Below, piece after piece: positions 10,391 through 63,124 of a DNA stretch of 64,000 bases. Under the pieces are notes generated by a model, which worked only from the letters and a program-made list of their open reading frames with translations, was not told where the DNA came from and made no database searches. This stretch comes from Nannocystis bainbridge (GTDB lineage Bacteria > Myxococcota_A > Polyangia > Nannocystales > Nannocystaceae). Positions within the stretch are counted from its first letter, which is position 1. Every line of letters begins with the position of its first letter. Both the position numbers and the translations under genes were made by a program. The DNA is taken from contig NZ_JAQNDL010000002.1 in the NCBI RefSeq assembly GCF_028368995.1, forward strand, positions 1,920,001 through 1,984,000, given 5' to 3'.

Positions 10391-10775
10391 CCTGAAGGAC
10401 ATGTTCGTCGTCCTCGACCCGCCGCCCGGCGGCCTCGCGCGCCTGCGAGCCCGCCGCGACGCGCCTGTCCGCGCCCGCTGGCCGTGGCTGCTCGCCGGCG
10501 CCGGCCTCGCCACGGCCGCGGCCGTGCTCGCCCTGTCGCTCCGCCCCGTCGAAGTCCCGGCGCCGCTCCCCGCGCCCGTGGCTGCACCGGTCGACCTCAT
10601 CGCCGGCCGCACCGACCTCCACCCCGCGTGGATCGGCCTCGGCCGCGTCGCCCCGCCCACCGAGCCGCTGCAGCTCGCCCCCGAGCTCGGCGGCGCCCTC
10701 GCCTCCCGCCGCGTCGCCCTGCCGCGCCAGGACGTCGTCCTCTACATGCTCGACCCCAAGGGACATGCCCCATGA
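10368..10775 (+). CDS. Putative membrane anti-sigma factor
   Basis: Overlaps the ECF gene 3' end; single TM WPWLLAGAGLATAAAVLALSL. Confidence 0.6.
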   Translation: MKPPSEDDLKDMFVVLDPPPGGLARLRARRDAPVRARWPWLLAGAGLATAAAVLALSLRPVEVPAPLPAPVAAPVDLIAGRTDLHPAWIGLGRVAPPTEPLQLAPELGGALASRRVALPRQDVVLYMLDPKGHAP

Positions 10776-10823
10776 ACCATGTCCGAAACGACATGTCGCA
10801 TTCGACATGTCCCCATGTTCACG
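10764..10823. repeat. 14-bp-phased CATG array
   Basis: CATG at 10764, 10778, 10792, 10806, then CACG 10820; spans the junction of convergent genes. Confidence 0.9.
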
Positions 10824-14087: not shown

Positions 14088-14678
14088 ATGGACGTCGCCC
14101 CCTGTGCGTTCTGCGAACTCCCGCACACAAGTGACAACCTCCGCCGCGACTACGAGCTCGACTTCTGCGAACGCTGCGCCGAAGGCCACGCCGAGGTCGC
14201 GCTGCGCGAGCGAGGCCACACCATCGTGTCGCGCGAGTGGCAGACGCGCGAGCGCGTCGGCAGCGACTTCTACACCTTCTATCACTACTCGATCACCGCA
14301 CGCCCGCGCGTCAGCCTGTCGTTCCGCGCCAGCTTCGCCCGCGAGAGCACCCTCGATCGCATGATCAAGGTGTTCCGCCGCGACCTCACCGTGGGCGACC
14401 CGCTGTTCGACGACTTCATCTACATCAGCACGCGCGACCGGGCCCAGGTCACCCTGATGCTCGACAGCACCGGCACCCAGGCGACCTTGATGGACCTCGT
14501 CAGCCGCTTCAGCAGCGTGTTCTTCGACGGCGGCGCCTTCGAGGTCCGCGAGCGCGGCACCGAGTCGATCAGCCCCGACCTCCCCGCCATGCTGTCGGTA
14601 GCCGCCATGCTCGTCCACCTCGAGCGCGCCGCCGAGGCCGCCGCCGCCCCGCCGACCGCGACGCCCGCTGAGACCTGA
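14088..14678 (+). CDS. Hypothetical protein with N-terminal CxxC...CxxC
   Basis: CAFC...CERC; GC3-rich frame directly after rlmJ. Confidence 0.7.
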   Translation: MDVAPCAFCELPHTSDNLRRDYELDFCERCAEGHAEVALRERGHTIVSREWQTRERVGSDFYTFYHYSITARPRVSLSFRASFARESTLDRMIKVFRRDLTVGDPLFDDFIYISTRDRAQVTLMLDSTGTQATLMDLVSRFSSVFFDGGAFEVRERGTESISPDLPAMLSVAAMLVHLERAAEAAAAPPTATPAET

Positions 14679-14831
14679 GCCTGCCGGCATGTCGCCCGGG
14701 ACATGTCCTCGGGCCCATGTACGAACGCGCATGTCCGCAAGGACATGCCCGAACGCGCATGTTCTCCAGGACATGCACGAACGAGCATGTCCGCGAGGAC
14801 ATGCTCGTTCCGTCAGGCCCCTCGAGGCAGG
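14674..14831. repeat. Longest 14-bp-phased CATG array (12 nodes)
   Basis: CCTG 14674; CATG 14688, 14702, 14716, 14730, 14744, 14758, 14772, 14786, 14800; CAGG 14814, 14828; fills the gap between convergent genes. Confidence 0.95.
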
Positions 14832-14832
14832 C

Positions 14833-15630
14833 TCAGACCCGCCGGGTCCCGCCGCGCAGCGCCGCCACCAGCTCGCCCAGGGCCGCCGGGCCGCGCTGTC
14901 CGGCCTCGACCAGCGCCGAGCCGACCACCACGCCGTCGGCGTGCCGGGCCAGCGCGCGCACGTCCTCGGCCTTGCGCACGCCGAAGCCGACCACGATCGG
15001 CAGCGAGCTCGCGCCGCGCAGCGTCGCCAGCCCCGCGTGCAGGCCGGCGTCGCTCGCGTCGAGCGGCGCCCCCGTCACGCCGGTGAGGCTCACCGCGTAG
15101 ACGAACCCGCTGCTGGCCGCCAGCACGCGCGCGCGGCGGGCCGGCGTGGTCGTCGGCGCGACCAGCCCGATCCATCCGAGCCCGCGGGCGCTCGCCGGTC
15201 CGCGCAGCACCTCCGCGTGCTCCGGCGGCATGTCGACCACCAGCAGCGCGTCGACCCCCGCCTCGGCTGTCTCTCGGGCCAGGCGCTCCGGCCCGAAGCT
15301 GACCAGCGGGTTCGCGTACGAGAACAGCACGATCGGCAGCTCGAAGCGCTGACGGATCTCCGCCGCCAGCGCCAACGAGCCCGCCATGGACGCCCCGCTG
15401 GCCAGCGCGCGGGTCATCGCCGCCTGGATCGTCGGGCCGTCGGCCGCCGGATCGGAGAACGGTACCCCGAGCTCGAGCACGTCGAGCCCGGCCTCGCAGG
15501 CGGCGAAGATCCGCTCGCGCGAGCCGGCGCGATCCGGATCGAACCCGGTCAGGTAACCGACCAGGGCCGCGCGGTCCTCCGCGCGCGCCCGGGCGAACGC
15601 AGCCGTGACGCGATCCACTCCGGCGCTCAT
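14833..15630 (-). CDS. trpA: Tryptophan synthase alpha subunit
   Basis: [38 protein letters not shown]. Confidence 0.97.
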
Positions 15631-18750: not shown

Positions 18751-19167
18751 CACCACCTGTCTCTCGGACCAGAAGGTCCACGCACCAAGAATCTGTCCCT
18801 CGGGCCAGGTCCCATCGGAGCGGGTCTCTCGGTTGGATACCGACTGACCTGCCCCGCGAGTCAGAACGTCCCACGCCGACGACCTGGCCCTCGGGACAGC
18901 CCCGGGCGTACCGCCCACTGTCCGGCCCGCAACCTATCCCTCTGGCCAGGCTCGCCCGAACTCACCTGTCCCGCGGGCCAGCCTCACCCGCGAGCTCGCC
19001 CTCCTCTGTCCCTCTATCCCTCGGGCCAGACTCACCCGCGAGCTCTACCTCACCTGTCCCTCGGGCCAGCCTCGCCCGAAATCACCTGTCCCTCGGGCCA
19101 GCCTCGCCCGCGAGCTCGACCTCCCCAGTCCCCTCGGGCCAGCCTCGCCCGTGAGCTCGACCTCCCC
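18751..19167. repeat. About ten spaced copies of CCTGTCCCTCGGGCCAG
   Basis: Motif halves 14 bp apart starting at 18756, 18792, 18848, 18883, 18933, 18965, 19013, 19053, 19085, 19126, several followed by CCTCGCCCG(C)GAGCTC. Confidence 0.85.
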
Positions 19168-27371: not shown

Positions 27372-27567
27372 GCTGACTGCAGGGACATGTCCCGCGGGCC
27401 ATGTCTCCTGCGCCACGGCTCATCCCCGGCTCGCAGCGCCGCCCTCGACGCGGGCAGCCGGGGTAGCGCTACGCTGACGCCTGCCCACCAGGACATGCCA
27501 CAAAGGACATGTCCATGACGACATGTCCTCGAGCGCATGCCCACAAGCGCATGCCGCAAAGGACATG
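27372..27567. repeat. 14-bp-phased CATG arrays (two blocks)
   Basis: Block 1: GCTG 27372, CATG 27386, 27400, CACG 27414. Block 2: CCTG 27480, CATG 27494, 27508, 27522, 27536, 27550, 27564. Between convergent genes. Confidence 0.93.
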
Positions 27568-31836: not shown

Positions 31837-31910
31837 CATGTCCTTACGGGCATGTCCGACAGGGCATGCCCCTGAGGACATGCCCGTTCGAGCATGTCCT
31901 CCAGGACACC
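31837..31910. repeat. 14-bp-phased CATG array
   Basis: CATG 31837, 31851, 31865, 31879, 31893, CACC 31907; starts 12 bp after the stop; convergent genes. Confidence 0.93.
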
Positions 31911-33988: not shown

Positions 33989-34062
33989 CATGGTCTTCGG
34001 ACCATGCCCTTTGAGACATGTTTATAAAAACATGCGCAACAGGACATGCTCGTTCAGACATG
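33989..34062. repeat. 14-bp-phased CATG array
   Basis: CATG 33989, 34003, 34017, 34031, 34045, 34059; convergent genes; contains AT-rich unit catgtttataaaaa. Confidence 0.93.
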
Positions 34063-35678: not shown

Positions 35679-35738
35679 CATGTCCCCGCAGACATGCCCT
35701 TACGGACATGCCCCCGAGGACATGCCCCCGAGGACCTG
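35679..35738. repeat. 14-bp-phased CATG array
   Basis: CATG 35679, 35693, 35707, 35721, CCTG 35735; two identical units catgcccccgagga; just 3' of the vWA gene. Confidence 0.92.
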
Positions 35739-40846: not shown

Positions 40847-40852
40847 GTCGAT

Positions 40853-40953
40853 CCTGTCCATTCGGGCATGCCCGCGCGGACATGCCCTTTCGGACATGGT
40901 CTTGAAAACCTGTCCCTTCGAGCATCCTTCGACCATCTGTCCCTTCGGCCATC
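40853..40953. repeat. 14-bp-phased CATG/CCTG array
   Basis: CCTG 40853, CATG 40867, 40881, 40895, CCTG 40909, CATC 40923, then TCTG 40936/CATC 40950. Confidence 0.88.
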
Positions 40954-41049
40954 CTTCGAGCGCCCTCGAGCCGGCCTCCGCTCCGCCGCCCGCCCCGGCT
41001 CTCGCCTGGCCATCCGCGCCTCCCACCTCACTCCCCGGTTTAAACCCTC

Positions 41050-56090: not shown

Positions 56091-56136
56091 GCTGTCCCTC
56101 GGGACATGTGATTCGCGACATGTCCCTCTAGACATG
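56091..56136. repeat. 14-bp-phased CATG array
   Basis: GCTG 56091, CATG 56105, 56119, 56133; starts 6 bp after the stop. Confidence 0.88.
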
Positions 56137-63050: not shown

Positions 63051-63124
63051 CATGTCCTTTTAACCATGTCCTTTTCGACATGCTCATTTCACCATGCCCT
63101 CGACGACATGCTCTTCACGACATG
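63051..63124. repeat. 14-bp-phased CATG array
   Basis: CATG 63051, 63065, 63079, 63093, 63107, 63121; just 3' of the ankyrin gene. Confidence 0.93.

Follow-up and report, generated by a model that had tools for sequence, protein, structure and literature searches.

The gap downstream of trpA in Nannocystis raises the question of what a long run of CATG tetranucleotides, set at exact 14-bp steps, does between two convergent genes. In the window (the whole 64-kb stretch of DNA that was analysed), the array occupies the 154-bp gap from the stop of a 196-aa ORF to the stop of trpA. CATG nodes lie at 14688, 14702, 14716, 14730, 14744, 14758, 14772, 14786 and 14800, and are flanked in phase by CCTG at 14674 on the left and by CAGG at 14814 and 14828 on the right. 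These coordinates bear out the description in an earlier note of twelve in-phase nodes (CCTG, nine CATG, two CAGG) at 14-bp steps that fill the convergent gap. The pattern CATG-N10-CATG-N10-CATG was found 28 times in the window, as compared with 0.00 times in 100 dinucleotide-preserving shuffles.

The internal units of the trpA array had been said to alternate between two types with a 28-bp super-period. The alternation is real: Tandem Repeats Finder reported a period of 28 bp over 14702–14804 (3.7 copies, 80% matches, score 122), and every second unit of the array is degenerate. The same note took the array to have dyad symmetry as a whole. This is accurate for the outermost 10 bp, as TGAGCCTGCC at 14676–14685 is the exact reverse complement of GGCAGGCTCA at 14826–14835, the two arms including both stop codons; the left outer arm, however, lies 8 bp off the 14-bp phase, and in this respect the claim fails. 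The minimum free energy folds of both strands paired the left arm with the right arm, and the array folded with a z of −10.3 on the + strand and −7.8 on the − strand. In the RNA fold, the consensus-type units at 14730, 14758 and 14786 formed hairpins, and the degenerate units between them formed linkers. A metagenome contig of 440 nt (run X3) spans 14423–14862 with 5 differences and 0 gaps; the remaining metagenome pieces at the locus cover conserved parts of trpA only, from which array length is not readable. The features of the gap, together with the other arrays of the window, are collected in Table 1.

Table 1. Features of the trpA gap and other members of the array family, in window positions.
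Feature	Position	Strand	Basis or remark
196-aa ORF, without Pfam family	14088..14678	+	Stop TGA (14676-14678) provides TG for the outer half node
Half node CCTG at the left end, in phase, one 14-bp step ahead of the first CATG	14674..14677	.	Family-wide end rule
Left outer arm TGAGCCTGCC, contains stop codon	14676..14685	.	Sequence and folds
Nine CATG nodes, forming eight abutting units	14688..14803	.	Sole nine-node chain in the genome
28-bp super-period, CATGTCC-N4-GGACATG alternating with degenerate CATG-yaCGAACGmG	14702..14804	.	Tandem Repeats Finder
Longest perfect hairpin, 14-bp stem GAACGAGCATGTCC / GGACATGCTCGTTC, loop GCGA	14779..14810	.	Sequence and folds
Two in-phase CAGG nodes, right end	14814-14817, 14828-14831	.	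Sequence
Right outer arm GGCAGGCTCA, includes trpA stop (TCA on +, 14833-14835)	14826..14835	.	Sequence and folds
trpA, tryptophan synthase alpha chain	14833..15630	-	PF00290, E 8.8e-73; convergent with the 196-aa ORF
Family member, 4 nodes	10764..10809	.	Orthologous arrays in 4/4 relatives
Family member, 6 nodes, convergent gap	27494..27567	.	
Family member, 5 nodes, starts 11 bp past TAA stop	31837..31896	.	
Family member, 6 nodes	33989..34062	.	
Family member, 4 CATG nodes and in-phase CCTG; tandem gap, near upstream stop	35679..35724	.	
Family member, 3 CATG nodes between CCTG nodes	40867..40898	.	Orthologues mostly CCTG-node, same 14-bp period
Family member, 3 nodes, directly past TGA stop	56105..56136	.	
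Family member, 6 nodes, adjoins stop in tandem gap	63051..63124	.	

The trpA array is one of a large family. The genome (11.05 Mb, 71.5% G+C, 5 contigs) carries 801 chains of at least three CATG nodes at exact 14-bp steps, nine of which lie in the window. Chains of three nodes were the most numerous (328), followed by those of four (213), five (159), six (75), seven (22) and eight (2), with a single chain of nine and a single chain of twelve; as only the twelve-node chain is longer, the trpA array is the second longest in the genome. Successive CATG sites lay 14 bp apart 3548 times, as compared with 66 times at 13 bp and 248 times at 15 bp. The last two figures are background levels, which are about 60–75 where the distance is not divisible by 3 and about 200–300 where it is, as at 6 bp. 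At half steps, CATG sites were found 6, 7 and 8 bp apart 476, 208 and 204 times genome-wide, and half-step CATG also occurs inside units (for example, CATGcccCATGaacCATG at window position 10764).

The unit logo read CATG-Y-C-C-n-n-n-n-G-G-R, with T in 57% of cases at Y and A in 61% at R. The sequence TGYCC-N4-GGRCA, with a 4-nt spacer, was present in 2828 copies, 1840 of them clear of any gene call, while every other spacer from 0 to 10 nt gave 23–93 copies each. The polar ends noted at trpA proved to be general in the family: one 14-bp step beyond an array lies a half node, which reads nnTGYCC inward, and CCTG (179), GCTG (134) and GATG (92) were found among 1602 array ends. Since the outer node keeps its inner half only, the repeated object is the 14-bp inverted repeat TGYCC-N4-GGRCA, arranged head-to-tail, and CATG arises at the junctions between units. 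The polarity of the array ends follows from this true unit, which the earlier note missed, as it did the genus-wide 3'-end element that is described below. Variant nodes in which the central AT is replaced by CT or AG (CCTG/CAGG) share the 14-bp frame, and at inner nodes their orientation with respect to transcription showed no clear polarity (83 vs 67). The loops of the units are 56% A+T in a genome of 71.5% G+C. Around the nodes, the contexts GCATGT and ACATGC were favoured over GCATGC genome-wide, and the inner cross-node pair was complementary at a frequency of 0.316 as compared with 0.418 expected, a mild anti-palindromic bias next to CATG.

The arrays had been proposed to grow by duplication of 14- and 28-bp units and to share ancestry across loci. 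Near-identical neighbours (at least 8 of 10 variable bases in common) made up 5.4% of the pairs at lag 1 and 7.1% of those at lag 2, as compared with 1.6% of random pairs, and neighbouring units had on average 4.5 of 10 variable bases in common, as compared with 4.2 for random pairs. Judged from these comparisons, duplication by 14 and by 28 bp does occur, and most units are not recent copies. For the trpA array, growth by 28-bp duplication holds. Common ancestry across loci was not upheld: the near-identical units cited for it, in other arrays of the window, are expected by chance, because the 2471 units follow a consensus so tight that two of them taken at random match at 8 or more of 10 positions in 1.6% of cases. 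Genome-wide, the units are not the near-identical slippage copies by which an ordinary tandem repeat (minisatellite/VNTR) is recognized. CRISPR arrays consist of repeats of 23–50 bp separated by unique spacers of similar length; the present family, with a 10-bp core, 4-bp spacers and about 800 loci, does not correspond to them. Rfam covariance models at gathering score gave 0 matches in the 64-kb window.

Further repeats in the window have a bearing on the unit. Directly past a stop codon, at 1245–1404, lies a tandem repeat with a period of 36/73 bp, each copy of which consists of a hairpin, CCTGTCC-N4-GAACAGG, followed by an 18-nt G+C-rich linker. It is a CCTG-type relative of the family with non-abutting spacing, in which the hairpin has been kept and the phase has not. 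At 18969–19167, CACCTGTCCCTCGGGCCAGCCTCGCCCG forms the basis of nested tandem repeats, the periods of which range from 23 to 72 bp; the CCTGTCC core is present there, without an obvious inverted partner. The segment 10391–10818, a 428-bp 'gap' without a gene call, is conserved in four relatives right up to the 10764 array, and is apparently a coding region that gene calling missed and that stops shortly before that array. The + strand of the whole window has a strong composition skew, with 40.2% C and 32.1% G.

The positions of the arrays relative to genes were assessed with a crude codon-usage gene caller written for the analysis, which gave 8040 genes and 82% coding sequence. The arrays were fully intergenic in 702 of 801 cases. 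Another 49 lay inside gene calls and had the normal array consensus; stop-containing loops in several of the 14 listed suggest that these calls are merged ORFs. Among gaps of at least 50 bp, 411 of the 1191 convergent ones contained arrays (34.5%, 1.39 per kb); the corresponding figures were 266 of 3318 (8%, 0.27 per kb) for tandem gaps and 30 of 1443 (2%, 0.05 per kb) for divergent gaps. When one mismatch was allowed, 808 of 1249 convergent gaps (65%) contained at least one unit, as compared with 68 (5%) after shuffling. In tandem gaps, the median distance of the array was 28 bp from the stop of the upstream gene and 212 bp from the start of the following one, and 238 of 288 arrays were nearer the stop. 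Many outer half nodes take their TG from the stop codon TGA, which gives a peak at 9 nt (63 of 788 ends). The arrays are thus found at the 3' ends of genes, convergent gaps above all. They are not followed by a U-tract: at least five T in 8 within 30 nt downstream were found for 19 of 288 tandem-gap arrays, as compared with 33 upstream. Canonical hairpin-plus-T terminators were not enriched in one 20-kb sample (3 vs 4.9 ± 2.5 in shuffles). A unit within 120 nt downstream was found for only 9 of 102 tRNA genes.

The family is restricted to the genus. The two-node pattern was found in 8 of 10 other Nannocystis genomes and in 0 of 20 genomes from other genera of the family and class, and none of the 400 other genomes of the phylum that were searched, which cover 254 other genera, contained the three-node pattern. 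A scan of named genomes with a seven-node pattern gave at least 118 matches; among those listed, 112 were plain near-identical tandem repeats, and the 6 in which all units differed were all Nannocystis records. The literature searched yielded no description of these palindrome arrays, and the family is apparently undescribed so far.

For six of the nine window arrays, the gap could be anchored in each of four relatives, with ~85–95% nucleotide identity in the flanking genes (~88–90% for the 196-aa ORF), giving 24 gap comparisons, a comparative sample that comes from one 64-kb region. By eye, a 14-bp array was present at the orthologous place in all 24. Two or more in-phase CATG nodes were found in 20 of these gaps, and the other four contained CCTG-node arrays. 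The numbers of nodes differed, and the loops were unrelated between species. At the orthologous trpA gaps, the four relatives had 4–5 CATG nodes, all in a single 14-bp phase; their loops are unrelated and the 28-bp super-period is absent, indicating that the expansion seen here is lineage-specific. The earlier note had suggested that this gap be compared in close relatives for length differences in multiples of 14 bp. The 14-bp phase is indeed kept inside every array; the differences in gap length (154 bp here, and 92, 119, 379 and 92 bp in the four relatives) are not multiples of 14, because changes also affect the sequence that flanks the arrays. Nodes and phase thus persist in these gaps, and turnover affects the loops and the number of units. 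The gap at 40847–41049 has CATG nodes here and nearly pure CCTG/CCTA-node direct arrays in the four relatives, indicating that the node type switches between species within one 14-bp frame. On the sense strand, the relatives' CCTG/CCTA arrays in this gap are C/U-rich and G-poor.

We examined the units for signs of selection on the transcript as opposed to the DNA duplex. In the sense orientation, G·U-type pairs outnumbered A·C-type pairs at three stem positions (207:112, p 1e-7; 154:111, p 0.01; 104:74, p 0.03), and were unbiased at the loop-closing position (96:92). The base composition of the loops is strand-symmetric, which argues against a simple mutational skew as the source of this bias. 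Sense RNA folded 2.0 kcal/mol better than antisense (162 vs 125 arrays; Wilcoxon p 7.5e-4), as compared with −0.39 kcal/mol (p 0.14) for control segments. In convergent arrays, the G·U bias flipped between the two halves (Fisher p 7e-4), with no G·U excess in the left half (257:248). Stem covariation was not detected: Watson–Crick pairs occurred at frequencies of 0.43, 0.58 and 0.57, as compared with 0.41, 0.56 and 0.575 expected if the positions were independent, mutual information between stem pairs was 0.007–0.012 bits, and C·A mismatches were not depleted (107 observed vs ~106 expected). The sense strand showed no preference for stable tetraloops (GNRA 54 vs complement 45; overall chi-square p 0.31). 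Genome-wide, good and poor units alternated weakly (lag-1 correlation −0.074, as compared with −0.028 ± 0.016 when permuted).

Our preferred explanation, which we hold tentatively and at slightly less than even confidence, is that the arrays are sequence-specific 3'-end hairpin arrays, REP/BIME-like in role, that end or protect transcripts from both sides. In its favour are the placement past stop codons, the lack of enrichment of canonical terminators in the 20-kb sample, the sense-strand bias in pairing and in folding, the flip of the pairing bias within convergent arrays, the strong folds at trpA, the hairpin kept at 1245–1404, the arrays at orthologous gaps and the exact 14-bp phase. Against it stand the lack of covariation, of C·A depletion, of a tetraloop preference and of a U-tract, the weak alternation of units, the left half of convergent arrays with no G·U excess, and the small number of tRNA genes with a unit downstream. 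With arrays that begin at the stop codon or only a few bases away from it, transcripts arriving from either side would meet a stack of short hairpins. These predicted hairpins, CAUGYCC-N4-GGRCAUG, would have 7-bp stems if alternate units were used, and the use of alternate units would account for the 28-nt super-period at trpA. The array might thereby act as a bidirectional barrier, either ending transcription or blocking 3'-to-5' decay at the end of the mRNA. As a bare hairpin would need far less constraint on the sequence of the nodes and on the loop length of 4 nt, a putative factor may read both sequence and spacing; such a reader of sequence and geometry would also suppress covariation.

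In the main rival reading, with which the absence of covariation agrees, the arrays act as double-stranded DNA. A genus-specific dimer would then bind each TGYCC-N4-GGRCA, neighbouring dimers would touch, and the filament formed after genes would serve as a transcription roadblock, an insulator, or a topology/gyrase site between convergent genes. Independent conservation of the node positions is what such a platform predicts, as are the strict 4-nt spacer, the exact 14-bp phase and the persistence of node sequence across species while loops turn over. Arrays that end in half sites, as complete operators would, A+T-rich and strand-symmetric loops, and the lack of a U-tract also fit. We nevertheless regard this reading as rather unlikely. 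Neither the G/U bias nor the folding advantage of the sense strand is expected for a symmetric duplex site, every second unit of the trpA array is degenerate, and the array at 1245–1404 keeps its hairpin at a 36-bp spacing, at which units do not abut. A candidate protein was not found: the operator of PadR proteins fits, yet the genome has no PadR gene by PF03551, and a search for an autoregulated binding protein by way of promoter-proximal arrays gave 110 candidate genes, many of which were start-codon artefacts (the ATG of CATG) or lay in wide gaps possibly hiding missed genes. In a related proposal, most gene ends in the genus would be marked by a protein-decorated array instead of a classical terminator, with a genus-specific factor reading the palindromes at the stop, as duplex DNA or as nascent hairpins, to give a two-sided roadblock or insulator. 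This would be factor-dependent, sequence-specific termination in a bacterium, with a logic like that of the eukaryotic Reb1/TTF-I site arrays; we consider it distinctly unlikely.

The arrays might, on the other hand, have no function for the cell. A selfish or neutral repeat, spread by slippage or by a mobilising enzyme, would survive only where it is harmless, that is, past the 3' ends of genes, with convergent gaps foremost. The restriction of the motif to one genus, the variation in unit number between species, the excess of near-identical neighbours and the lineage-specific 28-bp expansion at trpA would all be accounted for, and the enrichment in convergent gaps and, within tandem gaps, on the side of the stop is likewise what a safe-haven bias would produce. 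This too seems to us unlikely. The nodes and the 4-nt loop length were maintained while loops diverged in all 24 orthologous comparisons, a pattern that needs either purifying selection or constant regeneration, and none of the 11 genomes of the genus that were searched had a match to the Y1/RAYT transposase family (PF01797). Occupancy of 65% of convergent gaps and a strand bias that follows the direction of transcription are likewise difficult to reconcile with mere tolerance.

REP/BIME elements of enterobacteria and pseudomonads are short extragenic palindromes, present in hundreds to thousands of copies, lineage-specific and often clustered. They are located at the 3' ends of genes and in convergent gaps, and have been proposed to act as barriers to 3' exonucleases, in termination and in protein binding. 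The present arrays have in common with them the large number of clustered short extragenic palindromes, the preference for 3' ends and convergent gaps, the lineage specificity and the roles proposed. They differ in that the 14-bp units abut without a linker, with a self-complementary CATG at each junction and an exact period, and in the lack of stem covariation and of a RAYT/Y1 transposase in the genus. Because the units are themselves symmetric, they have no alternating orientation, unlike BIME units. On the preferred reading, the arrays are REP/BIME-like in role; they are not a member of the REP/BIME family. Mobilization by RAYT in the manner of REP elements was rejected on the PF01797 search, for which a control gave matches in 6 of 14 known genomes.

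Like intrinsic terminators, the arrays form G+C-rich hairpins soon after the stop, are usable on both strands and are commonest in convergent gaps; unlike them, they lack a U-tract, have a conserved common sequence in place of free stems, have a fixed 4-nt loop and are tiled. Short symmetric boxes arranged head-to-tail with an exact period, with positions conserved independently and a variable number of boxes, are also known from the met boxes of MetJ and from the heptad or iteron arrays of omega and ParR. Those arrays lie at promoters or plasmid centromeres and at few loci, whereas the present ones follow stop codons at ~800 loci and no candidate binding protein was found for them.

The operator of the PadR family is ATGT-N8-ACAT (PMC4517056), and the consensus unit cATGTcc-N4-ggACATg contains this sequence. 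The array sites differ in that they lie downstream of genes and not at promoters, and about one-third of the units have C for the key T. PadR was rejected as the cognate protein, as PF03551 had 0 matches in the genome and matches in 14 of 14 known genomes used as a control. That PF03551 is wholly unmatched in an 11-Mb genome is an observation in its own right.

To our knowledge, high-G+C bacteria such as the myxobacteria largely lack textbook hairpin-plus-U terminators, and the ending of transcripts in them is poorly understood. A motif that is present in about two-thirds of convergent gaps, lies close to stops, is kept at orthologous places and is laid out with a 14-bp ruler is a candidate for the definition or protection of mRNA 3' ends in Nannocystis, and points to a possible reader protein. 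The arrays also offer a natural system in which the birth, growth and register-keeping of short-palindrome arrays can be followed, and in the engineering of myxobacteria the motif could be used as a compact part that terminates or insulates in both directions.
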